DNA of 64,000 nt. It comes from Gammaproteobacteria bacterium. GTDB lineage: Bacteria; Pseudomonadota; Gammaproteobacteria; Pseudomonadales; Pseudohongiellaceae. Within the stretch, counting starts at the first letter, position 1; the number at the start of each line of letters is the position of its first letter. Below are positions 3,496 through 14,058 of this stretch, piece after piece. Position numbers and translations under genes: made by a program. Under the pieces are notes generated by a model. It was given only the letters and a program-made list of their open reading frames with translations, was not told the origin of the DNA and ran no database searches. Location: positions 10,028 to 74,027 of the forward strand of contig CAWKZY010000005.1 in assembly GCA_963854625.1 (NCBI GenBank). The letters are read 5' to 3'.

Positions 3496-4536
3496 TTACT
3501 TAGAGAGTGAATATTTTCGCAAAGCCATGCCTGCTGTGAGTGAGCCATAGATATTTCCATCACTGTCCGCAACCACACCCTCCTGACTCCCGCTCGCATC
3601 GGGGTCCTGAATAAACAACATCACACTGCCATCTCTCACATTCCCGACGCGAATACCTTCTTCAAAACCGGGATTAGATTGTGCTGTGTTTGAAGATGAG
3701 GAATCCGCGACATACAGCAGGTCATTGTCATCGATGAACATTCCGCTGGGTCGACCGAATTGTTTCCACTCGTCGAGAAAGTTACCCAACTCATCAAAAA
3801 TAAGTACTCGATCGTTACCACGATCACCAACAAATAATCTGCCAGCGGAGTCCATAGCTAGTGCATGAGGCGTATGGAACTGATTCGGCCCCTCGCCAAA
3901 TGATCCCCAAGTCATGAGATAGTCGCCATGAGAGTCAAACTTCACGATGCGAGCGTTTGATCTAGGCCCATGTCCGTCACCGACAAAGATGTCGCCACCC
4001 GGCGCTACGAGCACTGCCGATGGCATATTGAATGTGTCTGGACCGTCGCCAGGAATACCGGGACTACCCAGGGTCATGAGCAATTCGCCTTCAGGACTGA
4101 ACTTGAAGACCTGATGCCCCTTGGCCTCGCTAACAGTATCGATGTCACGTGAGCCAACATCATCTGTTACCCAAACATTGCCACCTCTGTCTACAGTCAA
4201 ACCATGAGGACGCTGAAACAGGTCTTCACCGAAACTGAGAAGGTGATTGCCCTGCCGGTCGAATTTCATAATTGGGGCAAGATCTGAACCTCGGCAATCT
4301 TGGGCACCGCAGCGATCAAAGACCCAGAATGCCGAACCATCCGGGTGAATTCCCAGGCCGGAGGTGGCACCGACTGACCTTCCCGGTGGCAGTTTGAAGA
4401 AAGCCTCGTCGATGCTGTAGTCATCGCTGGGGGTGAAACGGGCATCCGTGACCTGAGAGAATGCAATAACAGAAGAAAACAGCGAAAATATAACCGCTAC
4501 ACTCTGATGGACTTGGGAATTGTTCAGTTTTGGCAT
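3496..4536 (-). CDS. NHL-repeat beta-propeller protein, peptidyl-alpha-hydroxyglycine alpha-amidating lyase (PAL)-like
   Basis: ORF 3496..4584; the start was moved to the internal ATG at 4536 (MPKLNN...), which precedes a signal-like segment and avoids overlap with the upstream gene. Motifs PHGLTVDRGGNVWVTD, HQVFKF, IFVGDGHG..NARIVKF, QFHTPHALA and LFVGDRGNDRVLIF are colinear with my recollection of the animal PAL domain. Confidence 0.7.
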   Translation of the reverse strand: MPKLNNSQVHQSVAVIFSLFSSVIAFSQVTDARFTPSDDYSIDEAFFKLPPGRSVGATSGLGIHPDGSAFWVFDRCGAQDCRGSDLAPIMKFDRQGNHLLSFGEDLFQRPHGLTVDRGGNVWVTDDVGSRDIDTVSEAKGHQVFKFSPEGELLMTLGSPGIPGDGPDTFNMPSAVLVAPGGDIFVGDGHGPRSNARIVKFDSHGDYLMTWGSFGEGPNQFHTPHALAMDSAGRLFVGDRGNDRVLIFDELGNFLDEWKQFGRPSGMFIDDNDLLYVADSSSSNTAQSNPGFEEGIRVGNVRDGSVMLFIQDPDASGSQEGVVADSDGNIYGSLTAGMALRKYSLSK

Positions 4537-4573
4537 AATTGAAATGCTCGGTTCACGCTGATAAAAGGCTGTA

Positions 4574-6043
4574 TTATTGCACACGTACTACACCTACACT
4601 CCCTTCGACTTCGATTGTAGTTCCCCATTGATCTGACAGGCGTGCAACACGTTCCAAAATTAGTTGAGCATGACTCTCTTTGGCAATGCGCGGAATGCCA
4701 AGCTTTGAGTCAGGACCGTTTATTCCTAACTCTATTGGGTAAAGGCGCACCTCTTTTAGAACACCGTCTTCATAATGGCTGATTGCAACCACGCTTTCCA
4801 AAGACTGACTGGAACCGCCGAAATTTCGGGAAAACTGCTGCATTCTTCTTTGTGGGTCTACATCGGCAGCACCGACAACCAGCTCCAATTCCCACTGTGC
4901 TTCCCGAAAAAATTCACCCAGACCATAGAAGATTGGCTTACCTTCGTAAATTTCAATGCCGCGTAGTGTTTGCACTCCCGTGCCAACAAAGGCATCGGCC
5001 CCTGCATCAATAGCCTGATGGGCCAGGTCCACATAGAACTGCGGAGGGCGCGTGCTCAAATGCTGAAACTCCACGACCGACTCACTCTGATGAATGTGAG
5101 CGGCGGCAGTAACGAAATCCCCAAGCTGGCGGGCATTGCGGATATTCCTGAGCATGCGATCCACGTCATTGCCATTCAAGGTATACGCAACTGAGCCTGG
5201 AATTTCATCGCCCTGAGTTACTCGATACCTGGGGTCATTCCGTCCGGAACTCGAGGCAGGAATGCTTATACCCGTATCGGGCGAAGCACTGGCTACGGGG
5301 CGCGGATTGTCATAGTTGTCTCGGTGTTCCAGAAATCCCTGTCGAACTTGCAGCAGTGCATCGTACTGCTGCTGGGATACTAAAATAGTCTCTCTATAGT
5401 TGAGCATGTTGAGACCGGGTCTTCCTCCCAGATTTCCTTTGCGAGATGTTGCCGCGAGTCGATAGTGTTCTGGAAAGATGGGGGCATGGGCGCCAACTAA
5501 CGCTGCGCGCCCCTTTGCCAATTCGAGAAAAGCCGGTGCGGCCGCTTCTTGTAGGTTTCTACCGCTGCCCGCATGAATTATGCCTGCTTGGTCCAGCAAA
5601 GCGTTCGTTGAAAACATGCCCTCGAACTCAGAATCAAGGAGATGATTCTGAGCGCGATTGACCATGTCGAACCCCATCAATTTGAGATCTGCTGCGACCT
5701 TATGGCTACCGACAAAACCATTGAGGGGGCCATCGAATTCTCGCAGATTCGCCAACTCCCCCTCCATGTTTGCCACTGCAAGATCGGCACTTCTTATCAA
5801 TTCAAAAACTGCCTGTACTTCTGGGTCGGCGAGCCGGGATGCGGGACGGCGTATCATCAAGTCACCAACACTTGCGAGAACGAATTCTCCCGGCATGGTC
5901 ATTGCCCGATCCCTATCGGCAAGCGGCGGCAAATCAGTCTGGGCTGATAGGTTGACTGAAAGGCCACTCGATACTGCTAAAACAAGTGTAACTATATGCG
6001 ATGCGACTCGGCCTGGCCGTCTCTGTAATTTATTAGCTTTCAT
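4574..6043 (-). CDS. CapA/PGA_cap-like (metallophosphatase-fold) secreted protein
   Basis: ORF 4574..6061; likely start MKANKL at 6043. Colinear CapA-like pattern: SVGDLM..R, ADLAVANMEG, GFDMVNRAQNH, AGSGRN, GKPIFYGLGEF. Some canonical His positions appear substituted. Confidence 0.55.
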   Translation of the reverse strand: MKANKLQRRPGRVASHIVTLVLAVSSGLSVNLSAQTDLPPLADRDRAMTMPGEFVLASVGDLMIRRPASRLADPEVQAVFELIRSADLAVANMEGELANLREFDGPLNGFVGSHKVAADLKLMGFDMVNRAQNHLLDSEFEGMFSTNALLDQAGIIHAGSGRNLQEAAAPAFLELAKGRAALVGAHAPIFPEHYRLAATSRKGNLGGRPGLNMLNYRETILVSQQQYDALLQVRQGFLEHRDNYDNPRPVASASPDTGISIPASSSGRNDPRYRVTQGDEIPGSVAYTLNGNDVDRMLRNIRNARQLGDFVTAAAHIHQSESVVEFQHLSTRPPQFYVDLAHQAIDAGADAFVGTGVQTLRGIEIYEGKPIFYGLGEFFREAQWELELVVGAADVDPQRRMQQFSRNFGGSSQSLESVVAISHYEDGVLKEVRLYPIELGINGPDSKLGIPRIAKESHAQLILERVARLSDQWGTTIEVEGSVGVVRVQ

Positions 6044-7245: not shown

Positions 7246-8052
7246 TTACTGATTCATTTTTGAAATCACCCCTATTCTGGTGTCGGGATTAGCATCATCA
7301 CCTGGGTCATGAAAGAAGCCCGCTGCTACGCTAACCGAAATTGCTGGACTGGTCTCAGCGACACAGGCAATGACATGATTATCCGGGTCATCATCAGCGA
7401 GGATGTGAGGATGCACGGAATTACCGTCACTAAGAAGAATCGATATAGCTGTTCGCTGAGCCTCGGCAAGATCAGCACCCTGTGGTCCAGAAACACCGCC
7501 TTCCCAAGTTAGCTGAACTGCTTGTGCGGTATCGATTGGACATTCCCCTTTAAGCCCTAAAGTATTGGGAGCAAAGCGCTCGGCAAGCACCAGGCTGGGT
7601 CCAAATGCGAGGGGCGTCACCTTTTCTATTTTCAAACCGACCAGTGAATTCCCATCGACATCTTCGAGTTGTTCCACAATCTCAACACTGAGCGGCAGTG
7701 AATCGTCGACACTAAAAGGTCCAATAAGAAGCACCGTGCGCTTCTCGAGCGTCTCTAAAGCAGGTCGCAAAGTCGCACATAGTGGAGTAACAATCTCACC
7801 GGAGGTGGTCTCAACTGCAAAGGCAGCTGCAGAAACTGATGCACTATTTATTTGAACAGAAAAGGTAACGGGCATTCCATCCTGACCACCAGCAGGCGGC
7901 ATTCCACATAGTCGAGTTGCTCGTGGCGGTAAGGGATCAAGCCCGTGATACGCTGATAGAATGCGCATCTCTTTCTCACTTTCCGCTATTTCCCCCTGCG
8001 CTTCAGCAGCAACGAAAAAGCAGAATAAGAATAGTGTTGTGGATAATTTCAT
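7246..8052 (-). CDS. Hypothetical secreted protein
   Basis: 268-aa ORF with a clear signal peptide (MKLSTTLFLFCFFVAAEAQ). No recognisable motif. Same strand and spacing as its neighbours. Confidence 0.5.
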   Translation of the reverse strand: MKLSTTLFLFCFFVAAEAQGEIAESEKEMRILSAYHGLDPLPPRATRLCGMPPAGGQDGMPVTFSVQINSASVSAAAFAVETTSGEIVTPLCATLRPALETLEKRTVLLIGPFSVDDSLPLSVEIVEQLEDVDGNSLVGLKIEKVTPLAFGPSLVLAERFAPNTLGLKGECPIDTAQAVQLTWEGGVSGPQGADLAEAQRTAISILLSDGNSVHPHILADDDPDNHVIACVAETSPAISVSVAAGFFHDPGDDANPDTRIGVISKMNQ

Positions 8053-8106: not shown

Positions 8107-10077
8107 TCAAGGCTCGTAACTGTAAATCCTTAATCGTCCCGGCACATCTGAACCGGAGATCGCCACCGCAAGATACTGTACGCCGTCGATAGCGTAGGTC
8201 ATTGGGCTTCCAGTCTGTTGCGCTGGCATGGATAGGCTGCCTAGTTGTCTGCCGGTAAGTTTGTCATAGGCTCGCAGCAAGGCTTCCTGCTCGCCATTAG
8301 CGTTTGTATAGCTGCCACCGTCGCCGGCTATAAGGAGTGTTTTGGTTACTAAAACACCTACACGCCCAGCTTGCCCGGTACGGGGAATATCTAGGCCGGC
8401 CAGTGCAGGATGATTGCGAATAGAATCCGGAGTCTCACCATGCACAACATCCCAAAGCTTTTCACCCTCGTTCAAGTCCAGTGCCACGATCTGTCCGTAA
8501 GGTGGTTTAATTAATGGCAAACCCTCCACATTCAATCGCGGCGCAGTTCTCAATTGCAGATTAATATAGTCCATGTCTGAGCGGTCCGGACGATTACTCA
8601 TAGACATTCGGCCCACATCAGACTTGCTAAAAATATACATGATGCCGGATTCAGGATCGACTGCGCCTCCAGGCCAGTTGGCCCCACCGGTTTGTGAGGG
8701 CATGAACAGTGTGCCGAACGTACCATCGTCGGCTTCCGCCAGAGACGGAGGCATATATATGTCGCCGTAGCGGTACCGAGACAGTATCTCTCGTGCCTTG
8801 GCTTTCAGCTGCGGTGTGAAATCAATTAACTCATCGTCGTTGAGCCCTTGGCGAGCGAACGGTGGAGGTCTCACAGGAATGGGCTGAGTGGGAGAAAGTC
8901 GCTCACCCGGTATATCGGATGCGGGTACTGGCACTTCTTCTATTTCAAACAGAGGCTTTCCGGTCCCTCGGTCGAAGACGAAGGTGAACCCCTGTTTAAC
9001 TGTTTGCACTAAGGCGGCTCTGATTTTTCCATTGATCGTCAAGTCAAGAAGCATTGGCGCAGACGGAATATCCCAATCCCACACGTCATGATGAGTAGTT
9101 TGAAAATGCCACTTTCGCTCACCCGTTGCGAGATCAAGCGCCACCACGCTGTTAGTAAAAAGATTGTCTCCATGTCGATGACCACCATAGGAATCCCCTG
9201 TGGCGGTTTCAGTAGGCAGATATACTGCATTAAGCACGGGATCGATAGTCATCTGAGCCCAGGCGCCACCATAACCCGTATAAGTCCAGGAATTATTCAG
9301 CCAGGTATCATTTCCATATTCACCACCCTGAGGAATACTGTGAAAAATCCAAAGCCTCTTGCCTGTTCGCGCATCGTAGCCACGCACATGGCCCTTCGGT
9401 TTTTCTCGGCTAGTTGGCATTCTGCCAGCTCGAAACGCCGATCCGATAACGACGACGCCATTGGCAACTATAGGAGCGGCATGCAACCCTACTTCACCTG
9501 TTTTGGGGTCCAACTCCTGATCGAACTCTTGTTTTAAATCTACAATACCATCGAGCCCAAAATCCTCAATGCGTTCTCCGCTTGCCGCATCCAGTGCTAT
9601 CATCTGGTAGCCAGGTGTCACATAAATGATTCGGCCCTTGTCACTGCCATCATTCCACCATGCCAGTCCTCTGCCTGACAATCGACGGGGAGCGTTAGAC
9701 GCGCGCTCTCCCTCATCAAGGCGAGACACCCAGAGAATCTCTCCGCTCTGCGCATCCAAAGCAACAATAGCTCGCCTGCTTCCAGCGGTGGTATAAATTG
9801 TTCGATTTACCATCAATGGTGTTGATTGAAAATTGAACTCAGGGCTAGACCCGAAATTACTCGTGTCGAATTCCCAAGCTATCTCTAGTTGGTTGAAATT
9901 TTCACCATTAATTATGTCCAACGGAGAATATCGGGTGCTCGCTAGGTCGCCTCCATAGGTGCGCCACTCCTGGTCCTGAGCTTGTGAGTGATTCATCGTG
10001 CTTATTGACAAGAAAATGAATAAGAACATTAGCAGAAGTGTATGTGCTTTCTTGTGGAGGCTGAGAGTGATAATCAT
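8107..10077 (-). CDS. Periplasmic PQQ-dependent dehydrogenase (quinoprotein beta-propeller)
   Basis: 656 aa with a signal peptide. The N-terminal signature WRTYGGDLASTRYSPLDIINGENFNQLEIAWEF is typical of PQQ dehydrogenases, and W-containing propeller repeats recur throughout. No vicinal Cys-Cys, so it is not of the methanol/ethanol-dehydrogenase subtype. Confidence 0.85.
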   Translation of the reverse strand: MIITLSLHKKAHTLLLMFLFIFLSISTMNHSQAQDQEWRTYGGDLASTRYSPLDIINGENFNQLEIAWEFDTSNFGSSPEFNFQSTPLMVNRTIYTTAGSRRAIVALDAQSGEILWVSRLDEGERASNAPRRLSGRGLAWWNDGSDKGRIIYVTPGYQMIALDAASGERIEDFGLDGIVDLKQEFDQELDPKTGEVGLHAAPIVANGVVVIGSAFRAGRMPTSREKPKGHVRGYDARTGKRLWIFHSIPQGGEYGNDTWLNNSWTYTGYGGAWAQMTIDPVLNAVYLPTETATGDSYGGHRHGDNLFTNSVVALDLATGERKWHFQTTHHDVWDWDIPSAPMLLDLTINGKIRAALVQTVKQGFTFVFDRGTGKPLFEIEEVPVPASDIPGERLSPTQPIPVRPPPFARQGLNDDELIDFTPQLKAKAREILSRYRYGDIYMPPSLAEADDGTFGTLFMPSQTGGANWPGGAVDPESGIMYIFSKSDVGRMSMSNRPDRSDMDYINLQLRTAPRLNVEGLPLIKPPYGQIVALDLNEGEKLWDVVHGETPDSIRNHPALAGLDIPRTGQAGRVGVLVTKTLLIAGDGGSYTNANGEQEALLRAYDKLTGRQLGSLSMPAQQTGSPMTYAIDGVQYLAVAISGSDVPGRLRIYSYEP

Positions 10078-10349
10078 GATTATTCTCGTCTAATAATTCT
10101 TTTTTATATTTTCAAATCAAATCATATCTGCTCGTTCATATAACGCAAACTACACCGGCTTGTTTCGGTGTTTGTGTCCATTCCATGGCCGCTGCGCCAA
10201 ATTCCATAACGCGTGAATCAGCGCTTCATCATGAAGCCTAATTTTAGGCATGCCAGTAGTAGCGCAAAAACCTGTGTCAAACGCTAAATTCCATTGTTTG
10301 TCTTTGTCAGTCTAGCGGATCATAGCCACTTCTTATTACATCAAGAACC

Positions 10350-10460
10350 GTAGCGAAGAAAACGGCGAGACAGTGACGACAAGTCGCTGACTTGTCTTAC
10401 AGATTCCAGCTAGAAAGAGTGTACTCTAGAAAAAAGAAGTAACCTAAGCACCCCTTACAA
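10350..10460. repeat. Copy 2 of the conserved intergenic element of about 110 nt
   Basis: Aligns with 3311..3417. Hairpin ACAAGTC-gct-GACTTGT has the stem conserved and the loop changed. Palindrome is degenerate (TTCCAGCTAGAA). 3' box TAAGCACCCCT. Ends about 30 nt before the start codon of the PHM-like gene. Confidence 0.7.
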
Positions 10461-10491
10461 GCACATTAGAGAACAAGCCCCTGGAGAGGTA

Positions 10492-11835
10492 ATGCAAATG
10501 AAACATACCAAATTATTAGTCGCGGCTGCTGCACTGCTTGGACTGCAGGGCGTATTCGCCCAGGAGCAGTTCACCTACAACGAGCACGTGGCCCAAATTA
10601 TCAATGAGAATTGTGTGGTATGTCACCAGGAAGGCGGCATCGGCCCTATGCAGCTCACCAATTTCGACCAAGTGCGCCCCTGGGCTCCGCTGATTCAGCT
10701 AAAGGTAGCCAATCGTGAAATGCCACCCTATGCCTATGATCACGGCATCGGCATTCAGGATCTGGTTGGCGACTGGCGTATGCAGCAGGATGAAATCGAT
10801 ACCATAGTGGCCTGGGTGAATGCTGGCTCTCCTCGTGGAAATATTGACACAACTGCAGCTTTTGCTCAGGTGAAAACCCCAAGCCAATGGAACTTCGAAG
10901 CCGAACTTGGCTCGCCGGACCTGGTCGTGCCTTCATCCTCCTATGATGTCCCCGCCAATGGTAATGACCTGTGGATAAGGGAGATTGTTGACCCCAGAGT
11001 AACAGCGGCAGTTGTAGGGCGCTGCATTAAGGCAGTTCAGGTGAAACCTCGCGGAGATGCAGCGGCGGTAGTGCACCACGCAAATTCCATCATCTTTATC
11101 GAAGACGAATACGGTGAGCTTCGCCGAAATGGCATGCTCACTGAATACGCCATGGGCAAATGGGGCGAGAAAGTGCCTGACGATGTTTGTCGTACCCTGC
11201 CCCCCGGCGCACAGATTCAATGGAATATTCATAATTTCCCAGGTGGCGTCGGTGCGACTGCCCGGGGCGAGATTATCGAGGACGTCGTGGTTGAAATCGG
11301 CCTGTGGTTCCACAACGAAGATTTCAGCGAACAGGAAGGCGTCTACCGACAGGACCTAACGAGCTATCAGATCGAGCAACAGGGCGATCTTGTGATTCCA
11401 CCCAACGGCTATCAAATGACCCAGGGATTTCACTCCTTTGACCATCCTGTGCGTATCGATAGTTATCAGCCCCACGGTCACCTGCGCATGAATGCCGCCT
11501 CGCTAGAAATTTTCTATCCGGAAACCGGCCGTACGGAGCCGGTCAGTCAGATCTCCAAATGGTCCGCCACCTGGCATCACAACCATATCTACGATCCCGA
11601 AGCGGCACCGCTGCTGCCAGCCGGCGCGGTTCTGGTACTAAAGCAGTGGTATGACAACACCGCTAACAACCCCTACAACCCGGATCCTGATATGTGGGTG
11701 GTGGGTGGTAGCCGCACCGGCGATGAAATGACTCACGCCTGGATCGCCATTACGCACCTAGACGATAAAGGCTATGACAAACTGGTAACCGAAAGAGAAG
11801 CCAAACAGAAACGCTCTCTAGCAGGCAGTGACTGA
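10492..11835 (+). CDS. PHM/DBH-like type II copper monooxygenase with an N-terminal CxxCH (heme-c type) module
   Basis: 447 aa with a signal peptide. CVVCH at nt 10612-10626. VKPRGDAAAVVHH (His-His at 11074-11079), IHNF, LVIPP, YQPHGHLRM (HxH at 11473-11481) and GGSRTGDEMTH (Met at 11728-11730) are colinear with the CuH (HH..H) and CuM (HxH..M) ligands of peptidylglycine alpha-hydroxylating monooxygenase as I recall them. An alternative start at ATG 10498 has better RBS spacing. Confidence 0.65.
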   Translation: MQMKHTKLLVAAAALLGLQGVFAQEQFTYNEHVAQIINENCVVCHQEGGIGPMQLTNFDQVRPWAPLIQLKVANREMPPYAYDHGIGIQDLVGDWRMQQDEIDTIVAWVNAGSPRGNIDTTAAFAQVKTPSQWNFEAELGSPDLVVPSSSYDVPANGNDLWIREIVDPRVTAAVVGRCIKAVQVKPRGDAAAVVHHANSIIFIEDEYGELRRNGMLTEYAMGKWGEKVPDDVCRTLPPGAQIQWNIHNFPGGVGATARGEIIEDVVVEIGLWFHNEDFSEQEGVYRQDLTSYQIEQQGDLVIPPNGYQMTQGFHSFDHPVRIDSYQPHGHLRMNAASLEIFYPETGRTEPVSQISKWSATWHHNHIYDPEAAPLLPAGAVLVLKQWYDNTANNPYNPDPDMWVVGGSRTGDEMTHAWIAITHLDDKGYDKLVTEREAKQKRSLAGSD

Positions 11836-11927
11836 TAAAGAAAGCTAAGCAATAATTGCGAAAGAAACACTGGTAATAAAAGTCACCGGGGAAGTTCGTG
11901 CACTACATAAAATTTTAGAATCATCGA

Positions 11928-12263
11928 TTAATAGCCAATCGAAGTAATGTAGGTATTGTCGAAGTATGGAATGTGATATTTGCGCAACACAGAAATGTAG
12001 TCCCAGTAGATGCTTTTCCCGGAGCCCTCCTCCAGATAATCCTCCATTCGCTCTGTTGCTAATTTGGCGACATGTTTAGAACGCTTACTTGGTATGGGAA
12101 TATTATGAAGAGCAGCATACTCATATTGAGCACTTATCTGAGTCGCTTTTACTATAGCCTTGTCTTTATCGGCTTTTTAGGTGGATTTAGATATCCATTT
12201 TTCGCTGATAACAAGCTGCGCATGCCAGCGTTTACTGCTGTCTTGTTTACAGATGTATAGTTG
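11928..12263 (-). pseudogene. Tyrosine-recombinase (phage-type integrase) N-terminal remnant
   Basis: Minus-strand frame is open from 12263 to 11931, with no start codon, one in-frame TAA (12177-12179) and no catalytic domain. Translation …SKRWHAQLVISEKWISKST*KADKDKAIVKATQISAQYE…ERMEDYLEEGSGKSIYWDYISVLRKYHIPYFDNTYITSI fits the arm-binding/SAM-like N-terminus of island integrases (W.A.V..G....SKSF.TK.EA..WA…). Confidence 0.45.
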
Positions 12264-12376
12264 CTAAGTAATGTCGTGCCGATTCACTTGTTGTGGCATA
12301 ACATGCAAGGTCGGTATTTGGCGTGTTCCGAAGCTGGTAAAGAAGAGCACAATATACTGATTATTAACAAGTATTA

Positions 12377-12443
12377 TAGACACACTGAATCCAAAATCCG
12401 GTTCCTTCACAGGAGTGGCGGCTCAAGTCCGCTCACCGGGGCC
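12377..12443 (+). pseudogene. 5'-truncated tRNA-Leu(CAA)-like fragment (D-arm 3' half to acceptor 3' strand); not an intact tRNA
   Basis: TAGACAC, then an anticodon region ..TCCAAAA.., a long variable-arm hairpin TCCT-tcac-AGGA, a T-arm GGCGG-CTCAAGT-CCGCT, and the acceptor strand CACCGGG-G-CC. It resembles the class II tRNA-Leu 3' two-thirds (E. coli leuZ …TAGACAC…GGTTCAAGTCCCGCTCCGGGTACCA). No complementary 5' acceptor strand lies upstream. C33 and C54 deviate from the universal U/T. Confidence 0.55.
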
Positions 12444-12592
12444 TTTTTAGGCTTTTTTAATTACAAATAGCTTAAGTTCTTAACATAATAGCCAATATTG
12501 ATTAAGTAAGGTTACGAAACTTAACAATCTAGACTTTGTGATTAGCAGATCCTTGGTCGGACAATTTAAACAGCCACAGGAGATGCTAATTC

Positions 12593-12760
12593 ATGAGTTT
12601 TGACGAAGAAGACAGCAAATACACAAGTGATAAAAATGACGACGATAAAGCTAAGACATTTTTCGGGTTTGAAGTTGGTGATTCGGTAACCTACGGTGTT
12701 GTTATAGTGCTGACGATCATATTTATTTATCAGGTTTCTGGAGCGACAGCGGTTCTTTAG
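12593..12760 (+). CDS. Possible small membrane protein (55 aa)
   Basis: An ATG lies downstream of an AGGAG-type RBS. Acidic N-terminus followed by one hydrophobic segment (YGVVIVLTIIFIYQV). Below the ORF-track size cutoff, so found by eye. Confidence 0.3.
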   Translation: MSFDEEDSKYTSDKNDDDKAKTFFGFEVGDSVTYGVVIVLTIIFIYQVSGATAVL

Positions 12761-12960
12761 CTAAGGCTCAAGCTTTCTTTATAGATAGCGCCTCATAAAA
12801 TTTTTCCCCACTTTTCCACATTAACGGCATTGCAAATGATTCTTTTGCGAGAGGTCTTCTCTGTGCCTGTTCAGTTTTTGCCTAGCGTGTTAGATTACGC
12901 CTCCTAAAATTTACTCTGAAAACTCACTCAAAGAGTGAGCCCAACCCCGAAGGAATCGGT

Positions 12961-14058
12961 ATGCCCAAATACAAAATAGCTCTTTTAGACGGTGATGGTA
13001 TCGGTCCGGAAATCATGGCCGAAGCAGTCAAGGTATTAGATTTAGTCGCCGAACGTAATGACTTAGAATTTGAGCTAGTCCATGGATCCTTTGGCGCTAG
13101 TGCCTATTTTGAACATGGCCATGCATTCCCTGACGCTACAAAAGCACTCTGCGATGAGGCTGATGCCATTTTAAAAGGGCCCATTGGTCTTAGCCATGAA
13201 GAGTCAAAGAAAATACCTATCGATATGCAGCCTGAGCGTGGCGCCCTGCTACCTCTCCGCCGGCGCTACAACACCTTCGCCAACATCCGGCCGGTATTTT
13301 TACCCAAAGAATTGGCCCATTTCTCTCCCTTGAAGTCCGAAATAATAGGAGATGGAGTCGATTTCATCATTATTCGTGAACTAGTGGGCGGCCTTTACTT
13401 CGGCAAGAAAGAAAGCGGCATCAACGCTGATGGCAAACGCTACGTAAGCGAAGCACTTGAATACGATGAAGATCAAATCGCCAACATCGCCAAGGTTGCC
13501 TTTGAAACTGCGCAGAAGCGTAAGAAGATCTTACATAACATTCACAAAAGTAATGTACTGAAGTCCAGCGTGCTTTGGAATGAAGTGATGAGTGAGGTGG
13601 GAGCTAATTATCCGGATGTGCAAGTCATACCAATTTTGGTCGACGCAGCAGCCACCTATTTATGCTTAAACCCAGGTCAGTTCGATGTCATGGTAATGGA
13701 AAACATGTTTGGAGACATCCTAAGCGACCAGTGTGGCGGCATCTTAGGCTCGCTAGGACTTATGCCATCAGCCTGTTTAGGCCCAGAAAAAGCTTACTAT
13801 GAACCTTCTCATGGCTCTGCACCTGATATAGCTGGCCAGCGCATTGCAAACCCATACTCAATGATTGGCTCTGTCGCTATGATGCTTGAAATGAGTTTCA
13901 ACATGGAACAAGAAGCTCGAAACGTATGGCAGGCTATGCAAAGTGTCTTTGGCCAGGGGTTTTCGACTCCTGACCTCTCTAAGCCAGGCAAAAATGTGAA
14001 GATGATCAGCACCGATGGCTTTGGTGACTTGGTTGTTGAAGAGCTAGCCAAACTTTAG
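12961..14058 (+). CDS. leuB: 3-isopropylmalate dehydrogenase
   Basis: 365 aa. IALLDGDGIGPEIM and NMFGDILSDQCGGILGSLGLMPSA are signatures of the isocitrate/isopropylmalate dehydrogenase family. Confidence 0.85.
   Translation: MPKYKIALLDGDGIGPEIMAEAVKVLDLVAERNDLEFELVHGSFGASAYFEHGHAFPDATKALCDEADAILKGPIGLSHEESKKIPIDMQPERGALLPLRRRYNTFANIRPVFLPKELAHFSPLKSEIIGDGVDFIIIRELVGGLYFGKKESGINADGKRYVSEALEYDEDQIANIAKVAFETAQKRKKILHNIHKSNVLKSSVLWNEVMSEVGANYPDVQVIPILVDAAATYLCLNPGQFDVMVMENMFGDILSDQCGGILGSLGLMPSACLGPEKAYYEPSHGSAPDIAGQRIANPYSMIGSVAMMLEMSFNMEQEARNVWQAMQSVFGQGFSTPDLSKPGKNVKMISTDGFGDLVVEELAKL

Follow-up and report, generated by a model that had tools for sequence, protein, structure and literature searches.

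The locus described here raises the question of whether a single bacterial polypeptide can unite the two-copper core of peptidylglycine alpha-hydroxylating monooxygenase (PHM) with a covalently attached heme and, if so, from where it would draw the electrons for its reaction. The gene in question lies in a stretch of 64,000 nucleotides from a gammaproteobacterium of the family Pseudohongiellaceae (GenBank assembly GCA_963854625.1, contig CAWKZY010000005.1, positions 10,028 to 74,027 of the forward strand). This whole stretch is referred to below as the window, and coordinates are those of the window unless another locus is named. The gene (10492–11835, + strand) is a real open reading frame (ORF) according to the mechanical ORF list and its translation: it starts with ATG and encodes 447 amino acids (aa), followed by a stop codon. 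Its product consists of a putative signal peptide, a cytochrome c domain, a linker, two beta-sandwiches that correspond to the CuH and CuM domains of PHM, and a C-terminal helix. A preliminary description of this DNA had proposed a PHM-like copper monooxygenase with six conserved copper-ligand positions and a fused CxxCH module. The present analysis revealed that the protein is homologous to PHM and DBH. Residue coordinates were checked by hand against the ruler of the window sequence, and every motif coordinate of the preliminary description proved to be exact.

Homology, predicted fold and putative ligand sites of the encoded protein

The homology was detected with an alignment of 56 full-length representatives of the family, which are 24–57% identical to the window protein (alignment A2). 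Compared with the sequences of the PDB, the profile derived from this alignment matched human DBH (E 2.1e-8) and rat PHM (E 2.5e-8), and the hidden Markov model (HMM) paired the family stretches vvHHvlvf, fqlHy and PHmHlrGk with TVHHMLLF, LQVHY and VHTHHLGK of PHM, respectively. Comparison of A2 with the rat PHM core by hhalign (probability 95.7%, E 1e-8) produced one alignment of 230 columns that covers six ligands and places H195/H196, H247, H328/H330 and M413 of the window protein on H107/H108, H172, H242/H244 and M314 of PHM. The PHM sequence used for this comparison was taken from HMMER output, except for 52 ligand-free residues (chain positions 206–257), which do not stem from that output. 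The six PHM residues are confirmed as copper ligands in PMC12164859. Among the 56 relatives, the Pfam model Cu2_monoox_C was matched by 19 (best E 5e-6) and Cu2_monooxygen by four.

On the basis of the HMM, hhalign and Foldseek results, the N-terminal beta-sandwich (residues ~140–285; 10909–11346, + strand) corresponds to the PHM domain of the electron-transfer copper, CuH, and the C-terminal one (residues ~286–424; 11347–11763, + strand) to the domain of the O2-binding, catalytic copper, CuM. According to the HMM and hhalign alignments, the predicted CuH ligands are H195-H196 (11074–11079) and, as the third, H247 of the IHNF motif (11230–11232). The predicted CuM ligands are H328-G-H330 (11473–11481), equivalent to H242-T-H244 of PHM, and M413 of a GDEM motif (11728–11730), equivalent to M314 of SDEMC. 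The LVIPP stretch named in the preliminary description comprises residues 300–304. The CuM domain also contains a family-specific loop, DNTANNPYNPDPD (residues 388–400). This DN..NP.NPDP loop is kept across the family, and hhalign aligned no PHM residues opposite it.

The predicted fold agrees with this assignment. A first AlphaFold2 (AF2) model, calculated from homologues of 67–89% identity, reached a predicted local distance difference test score (pLDDT) of 64 and a Foldseek template modelling (TM) score to PHM of 0.2–0.28, and was replaced. With the divergent alignment A2, AF2 returned a model with a pLDDT of 89.4 and a predicted TM score (pTM) of 0.86, in which a helical N-terminal domain is followed by two beta-sandwiches and a C-terminal helix. 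When this model was compared with the PDB using Foldseek, the top 31 matches were all DBH or PHM chains (E 5e-13 to 2e-7, probability 1.00, ~300 columns). The target-normalised TM scores were 0.47–0.63 for PHM, 0.36–0.40 for the longer DBH chains and ~0.2 or less from match 32 onwards, and the overall identity of the window protein to PHM was 11–14%. The double beta-sandwich on which the preliminary description had made its proposal depend is thus present in the prediction. Its PHM-like reading is supported independently by the profile, by hhalign and by the predicted fold, and the order it had read from the sequence, a His-His plus His site for CuH followed by a His-x-His plus Met site for CuM, is reproduced in the hhalign alignment.

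The best global superposition of the model was obtained with the H108A-citrate form of PHM, 6ALA (TM 0.63 versus ~0.5–0.57 for open PHM). Since 6ALA is the "closed" PHM conformer (PMC12164859), this hints that the two copper domains are closed up in the AF2 model.

The residues that would bind the metals stand out in a family that otherwise varies greatly. The mean column identity in A2 is 13%, and only 38 of the 447 columns are either invariant (14) or at least 90% conserved (24 more). The invariant residues are C41, C44, H45, M77, P78, P79, W108, P142, H195, H247, H328, H330, D388 and G406, and those that are at least 90% conserved include H196 and M413. Across this range of identity, no His, Cys or Met residues other than the putative heme and copper ligands are invariant or nearly so. 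By our own arithmetic, the chance that nine named residues (C41, C44, H45, H195, H196, H247, H328, H330 and M413) all fall within the 38 conserved columns is C(38,9)/C(447,9), or ~1e-10. The same nine residues are 100% conserved in 143 paralogues of ~450 aa from 81 genomic loci, and the CuH ligands H195/H196/H247 are 100% conserved in 182 paralogues. The conservation of all six copper-ligand positions, asserted in the preliminary description with some reserve, was found at both depths of comparison. Judged from the sequences, this pattern is the strongest evidence in the analysis that the sites are probably functional.

A different pattern was observed in longer paralogues of 500–610 aa with an AhpC/TSA-like N-terminus, which are present at ~35 Pseudohongiellaceae loci (for example L001, 3063–4886, − strand). 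They retain the heme ligands, the CuH histidines and the Met, and in 34 of 39 of these redoxin-fused proteins the CuM His-x-His is changed to Arg-x-Asn. Such paralogues, whose catalytic site is degenerate or re-purposed, are encoded directly beside intact ones.

In front of the copper core, residues ~25–115 (10564–10836, + strand) form a class I-like c-type cytochrome domain, recognised from weak Pfam matches, from the matches of relatives and from the helices of the AF2 model (29–40, 58–73 and 99–110). Cytochrome_CBB3 is matched by 36 of the 56 relatives (best E 4e-9), some of which do pass the gathering score (e.g. 37.1 bits). In comparison with the PDB, the family profile additionally picks up a monoheme cytochrome c and, within the alpha subunit of hydrazine synthase, the heme site. 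The ORF holds exactly one CxxCH, the CVVCH motif noticed earlier after the signal peptide (C41/C44/H45; 10612–10626). Its invariance among the 56 divergent relatives and in 182 of 182 locus paralogues identifies it as the probable site of heme c attachment. Met77 (10720–10722), of an M-P-P motif, is the candidate distal (sixth) heme ligand, and M77, P78 and P79 are invariant both in the 56-relative alignment and in the locus paralogues. The proposal of a fused c-type heme module is thus upheld by an invariant CxxCH, an invariant Met and the cytochrome c matches of the relatives. Its suggested resemblance to planctomycete-type cytochromes was not: no PSCyt model of Pfam matched the window protein even at E <= 10, and neither PSCyt1 nor PSCyt2 is among the 25 (of 30) Pfam families listed for the 56 relatives.

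No other credible gene in the 64-kb window carries CxxCH, and ccm genes are absent from it, apart from a weak TPR_CcmH_CycH match within a TPR protein. Residues 1–24 (10492–10563, + strand) were recognised by eye as a putative Sec-type signal peptide, MQMKHTKLLVAAAALLGLQGVFA, which precedes QE. The assignment is based on a basic N-terminus, a hydrophobic core and a cleavage-like site VFA-Q; the pLDDT of this segment is low. Because of this signal, the protein is predicted to be exported to the periplasm.

The C-terminal helix (11764–11832, + strand; residues 425–445 in the model) ends in a ...SLAG(S/N)D tail. The tail, R-S-L-A-G-(S/N)-D (within residues 436–447, 11797–11832), is kept after a long helix in the 450-aa family; among close homologues, A444, G445 and D447 each reach a conservation of at least 90%. 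It could have a docking, sorting or autoinhibitory role.

Dehydrogenases and a secreted partner encoded beside the family

The divergently oriented neighbour of the gene (8107–10077, − strand) encodes a soluble, heme-less pyrroloquinoline quinone (PQQ)-dependent dehydrogenase (PQQ-DH) of 656 aa with a signal peptide (Pfam PQQ, E 4e-179). It lacks CxxCH, and its closest NCBIfam model, below the cutoff, is the catalytic part of the glucose/quinate/shikimate PQQ-DH family. To place this arrangement, all ORFs from 82 Pseudohongiellaceae-type loci were clustered, which distinguished two genomic contexts. In the first (context A; the window and 13 further loci), the copper gene adjoins a heme-less PQQ-DH gene, which is followed by genes for a 268-aa protein of unknown function, an LRR protein, a PGA_cap protein and an NHL protein. 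The copper gene of the window is inverted relative to loci L008, L010, L011 and L016, with its adjacency to the PQQ-DH gene kept.

The association recurs far outside this group. A metagenome scan of a distant branch was performed with a 7-sequence alignment of members 41–53% identical to P0124, which is itself 39% identical to the window protein, and 52 loci of at least 5 kb were counted. Homologues of the window PQQ-DH were encoded within 8 kb in 23 of the 52 loci and within 500 bp in 19; most of these 19 are heme-less and 40–54% identical to the window enzyme over ~650–690 aa. In locus L087, whose family member is 39% identical, two c2+c0 pairs (c0 is the family gene; c2 is described below) are followed by two PQQ-DH genes. 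Between the two pairs of the same locus lies a gene (4405–5373) whose 322-aa product contains CVACH and CVECH as its two CxxCH motifs and has no Pfam match; this gene adjoins genes for a YncE/lactonase-like beta-propeller and an amidohydrolase.

PQQ enzymes are not the only dehydrogenases in these neighbourhoods. In 13–15 Pseudohongiellaceae loci (L045, L081, L032, L042, L067 and others), the tandem paralogues are followed by genes for a GMC flavoprotein dehydrogenase (554 aa) and a Tat-signal gluconate-2-dehydrogenase small subunit (172 aa). GMC dehydrogenases of this type normally have a third, cytochrome c subunit. No cytochrome subunit was seen among the clustered flanking genes of these 13–15 loci, and it is possible that the GMC enzymes form another group of donors that supply the fused heme with electrons.

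The second context (context B; 49 of the 82 loci) is characterised by a gene for a secreted protein of ~310 aa, c2, which has 312 aa in this context and is encoded directly before 2–6 tandem paralogues of the family, often with a longer redoxin-fused paralogue upstream. A c2-like gene also adjoins the family gene in 47 of the 52 distant loci, one of which carries a fusion; c2 is fused to the family protein in P0141 (L088) and in L150. Examples of c2 genes are found in L001 (5177–6115), L087 (760–1710 and 6911–7882) and, fused, in L088 (~9150–10142), and c2-like or paralogous neighbours were also seen on the short contigs that carry P0135, P0138 and P0140. The c2 proteins share the motif PVxEGW..N.DG..FGY.NRN...GQPT.F and often end in QCCWTN. 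They have no Pfam match and no relative among PDB sequences, and are named "hypothetical" in the sources, with a single "DUF4198" label. As c2 has no conserved His/Cys/Met set, it is probably a structural or substrate-binding subunit. The 268-aa protein of the window (7246–8052) was considered as a divergent c2 and rejected, since it gave no hmmsearch match and an hhalign probability of 0.2%.

Proposed electron route and competing explanations

The reading that we consider moderately probable is that of a periplasmic enzyme of three modules, in which electrons would pass from a dehydrogenase to heme c, then to CuH and finally to CuM and O2, with hydroxylation of a substrate other than peptidylglycine. 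The protein would be exported and would receive one covalent heme and two coppers. Single electrons would enter through the covalent heme, which would substitute for ascorbate, the reductant of the animal enzymes. The donor upstream would be either a periplasmic dehydrogenase, which would need a cytochrome c acceptor, or a cytochrome. The heme would then reduce CuH (His195, His196, His247) and CuH would reduce CuM (His328, His330, Met413), where O2 would be activated and a C–H bond of the substrate hydroxylated. We infer the direction from heme to CuH because the cytochrome domain directly precedes the electron-accepting CuH domain, because the genes that recur beside it encode dehydrogenases dependent on a cytochrome c as acceptor, and because PHM/DBH chemistry needs two external electrons per turnover. 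The identification of the adjacent PQQ-DH as the donor to the heme domain is more tentative; it may have this role, and we would not put it higher than that.

Several observations weigh against this reading. None of the Pfam and NCBIfam models searched matches the copper core of the window protein: PF01082 and PF03712 both miss it even at E <= 10, and the protein taken alone has no NCBIfam match and no phmmer match among PDB sequences. Since the curated Cu2 models of Pfam miss it, the protein is a relative of PHM at the superfamily level only. The pairing of the CuM methionine (tvdEM with SSDEM) occurs in a separate, individually insignificant stretch of the HMM comparison (2.3 bits), and the cytochrome matches of the window protein (residues 33–110) stay below the gathering score (Cytochrome_CBB3, 19.4 bits versus 27; Cytochrom_C, 19.1 versus 21.3). 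Arg240 of PHM, which binds the peptide C-terminus together with Asn316 and Tyr318 (PMC12164859), is replaced: in the hhalign alignment the three residues correspond to Gln326, His415 and Trp417, none of which varies among the 143 short paralogues. This replacement by Gln, His and Trp indicates that the window protein is not a PHM orthologue. Of the earlier label "PHM-like", the fold and the ligand sets hence remain, and orthology to PHM does not.

The genomic context adds to these reservations. The c2 gene is absent from the whole 64-kb window, which also contains no second paralogue; as the usual ~310-aa partner is missing, the window copy may work differently from a typical member. In 29 of the 52 distant family loci no PQQ-DH is encoded nearby. 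In the reciprocal test, a family member was present within 6 kb of only one of six PQQ-DH homologues (58–72% identity, long contigs), the single positive having a c0+c2 pair within this distance. Given this weak reciprocal link, the PQQ-DH is a frequent, not a dedicated, partner. The idea of a PQQ-DH subfamily dedicated to the copper enzyme was rejected, as the other five homologues had no family member within 6 kb.

The same inventory of genes and cofactors can be read in other ways, which we rank in the order oxidase or peroxide-linked enzyme, reverse electron flow, true peptide amidation and non-catalytic protein. A periplasmic oxidase or electron sink, in which the coppers reduce O2 to H2O2 or H2O, or a peroxygenase or peroxidase that uses H2O2, would have an identical cofactor set and the same dehydrogenase neighbourhood. 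Peroxide could be handled by the AhpC/TSA-Redoxin domain found in 14 of the 56 superfamily members, and PHM-type enzymes have been discussed as able to release H2O2 from CuM-OOH (PMC12164859). We nevertheless regard this as unlikely, since the complete His2Met CuM site, typical of C–H hydroxylases, is strictly kept, and the conserved loop near the CuM Met, the near-universal ~310-aa partner and the 2–6 tandem paralogues look like substrate diversification; moreover, AhpC-like domains of the ResA type could equally serve heme or copper maturation. Slightly less likely still is a self-priming loop, a variant of the preferred hydroxylation in which the PQQ-DH would oxidise the alcohol product and return two electrons via heme c to the coppers. 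The net reaction would then be R-H + O2 -> R=O + H2O, with no external reductant, and c2 would be a substrate-binding or docking subunit.

Electrons might also run in the opposite direction, from a substrate oxidised by the copper domain through heme c into the respiratory chain, by analogy with quinohemoprotein dehydrogenases. A heme c domain that is fused to a periplasmic dehydrogenase normally serves as an electron exit, and quinohemoprotein PQQ-DHs with a C-terminal cytochrome domain are present in the same loci. To our knowledge, however, no PHM/DBH-fold enzyme operates in this manner, the heme-less PQQ-DH and GMC neighbours are electron sources in need of an acceptor, which fits entry through the heme, and the CuH and CuM ligand sets are those of O2-activating enzymes. 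These points make reverse flow improbable. Even more so is a true bacterial PHM engaged in C-terminal peptide amidation. The fold and the copper ligands would suit it, and a PGA_cap protein encoded 4 kb from the gene is weakly similar to the lasso-peptide C-terminal Trp epimerase MslH (E 1e-50, 172 bits versus a cutoff of 700). Against this stand the uniform loss of the peptide-binding residues noted above, an identity to PHM of only 11–14%, and the fact that neither a lyase (PAL) partner nor a precursor-peptide gene was found near the gene. The least credible explanation is that the resemblance is due to chance or that the protein is a non-catalytic cytochrome c joined to a beta-sandwich binding domain without copper. 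It could be invoked for a window protein with no direct Pfam match to the copper domains, and degenerate members do exist (CuM HxH to RxN in most long redoxin-fused paralogues, see above). It would leave unexplained why the six ligand positions are invariant or nearly so over such deep divergence, among few conserved columns, and why the homology is significant at the three levels of profile, hhalign and Foldseek.

Surroundings, related systems and significance

Apart from the genes discussed above, the window is occupied by ordinary chromosomal functions (LptFG, PepA, ValRS, IspH, IleRS, RibF, AmtB, an RND pump and a BatA/MoxR cluster). Beyond the PQQ-DH gene and that of the 268-aa protein, the segment 2188–7158 (− strand) encodes further secreted proteins, of the LRR, PGA_cap, NHL/ScyF-like and MBL-fold hydrolase types. 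The distant fused member P0141 (L088) likewise has NHL and MBL genes at its flanks, and PGA_cap and MBL genes flank a PQQ-DH homologue with no copper-enzyme gene nearby (L173). At the window edge (85–1734, − strand) lies a gene for a serralysin-like metalloprotease with RTX calcium-binding repeats (Peptidase_M10_C, HemolysinCabind). The 1.1 kb between the copper gene and leuB (11836–12960) contain no ORF of at least 120 aa (only ORFs of 62 and 69 aa). The region 10000–13000 yielded no Rfam match and no tRNA, and its promoter- and terminator-like matches were not above shuffled expectation; one terminator-like hairpin lies at 12438–12455. Because the copper gene is inverted relative to the orthologous loci, the 11836–12960 segment may be a rearrangement scar.

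The family to which the window protein belongs is large. More than 2,784 homologue clusters at 90% identity were obtained for this protein, and a profile search of 1.84 billion cluster representatives retrieved 11,059 members of 400–1,250 aa at E <= 1e-3 (582 at E <= 1e-30); the family size of ~11,000 counts clusters at 50% identity. The members were found in marine, soil and sediment bacteria. A close-family scan, in which each species was represented by a single genome, gave 400 loci. The identity of orthologues reaches 91%, and the best 80 of the 400 are all from metagenome-assembled genomes labelled Pseudohongiella, Pseudohongiellaceae, Pseudomonadales, OM182 or "SAR86". The AhpC/TSA-Redoxin domain of the 14 relatives mentioned above is N-terminal to the core and ResA- or peroxiredoxin-like, with ResA-type thiol-disulfide oxidoreductases giving the top score, and other relatives add EF-hand, TPR, GAF or beta-propeller domains. 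In the sources the members are called "hypothetical protein", "mono/diheme cytochrome c family protein" or, in the case of AhpC/TSA members, "peroxiredoxin"; no functional name for the family was present in the sources searched.

The closest precedents for the copper core are the animal enzymes. As in PHM, there are two consecutive beta-sandwiches with the CuH (His-His plus His) and CuM (His-x-His plus Met) ligands in the same order and at comparable spacing, and the motifs HH, HY, HxHxxGK and DEM are common to both. The window protein differs in being bacterial, predicted periplasmic and only ~12% identical to PHM, in having an N-terminal c-type heme domain and the extra conserved DN..NP.NPDP loop, and in an electron donor that is presumably not ascorbate. 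The best Foldseek and HMM matches come from the group of DBH, tyramine beta-monooxygenase and MOXD1 (4zel: E 5e-13 and 2e-8, respectively), which are likewise multi-domain proteins with an accessory domain before the copper core. DBH, however, has a DOMON and a dimerisation domain and no cytochrome c, and the enzymes of this group are eukaryotic and vesicular and depend on ascorbate. In other proteins, DOMON domains bind heme b. The window protein has no DOMON match in Pfam and its N-terminal module is a cytochrome c domain, so that the placement of a heme domain before the copper core is analogous to that of the DBH DOMON, not homologous.

A tethered donor of the kind proposed here is known from other copper enzymes. 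In cytochrome c-tethered copper nitrite reductases, e.g. that of Ralstonia pickettii, the fused cytochrome is a built-in donor to the electron-transfer copper, which in turn serves the catalytic copper. These enzymes are unrelated in sequence and differ in their cupredoxin fold, type 1 and type 2 coppers, nitrite substrate and C-terminal heme. In the case of lytic polysaccharide monooxygenases (LPMOs), electrons of a dehydrogenase reach the copper monooxygenase via a cytochrome, as with the cytochrome domain of cellobiose dehydrogenase or the AA12 PQQ pyranose dehydrogenase. For particulate methane monooxygenase (pMMO), direct coupling with methanol dehydrogenase has been proposed, i.e. the genetic or physical association of a PQQ dehydrogenase with a copper monooxygenase. 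The folds and copper sites are different in these systems (histidine brace; PmoB/PmoC), and there the heme is located on the dehydrogenase or on a free cytochrome, whereas here it is fused to the monooxygenase. Also related are the uncharacterised AhpC/TSA–cytochrome c–Cu2_monoox_C proteins (called "peroxiredoxin" in at least one source and left without a name in most), which share the cytochrome c domain, the PHM-like core and identical invariant residues, and have an additional thioredoxin-fold domain; the window protein is the minimal two-module form.

Precedents thus exist for the fold, for both copper sites and for the tethered heme donor, and the family itself is widespread and uncharacterised. 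The full-text literature searched, where absence is not proof, contained no account of a PHM/DBH homologue from bacteria that carries a fused c-type cytochrome. A 2025 review of PHM mentions no bacterial PHM homologue with a fused cytochrome c (PMC12164859).

PHM and DBH serve as the textbook examples of non-coupled binuclear copper monooxygenases, and the route of the electron from CuH to CuM is debated, the choice being between long-range transfer across an 11 A cleft and an open-to-closed binuclear mechanism (PMC12164859). A bacterial homologue that is soluble, carries its own heme and could be produced in bacteria would provide an optically visible point of electron entry, at which single electrons could be injected and timed by flash photolysis, pulse radiolysis or a partner dehydrogenase. 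If the self-priming loop were true, the system would provide a soluble parallel to the direct coupling long debated for pMMO and methanol dehydrogenase. For the Pseudohongiellaceae (OM182-type) marine heterotrophs themselves, the tandem copies may represent an unrecognised periplasmic, O2-dependent C–H oxidation of dissolved organic matter.

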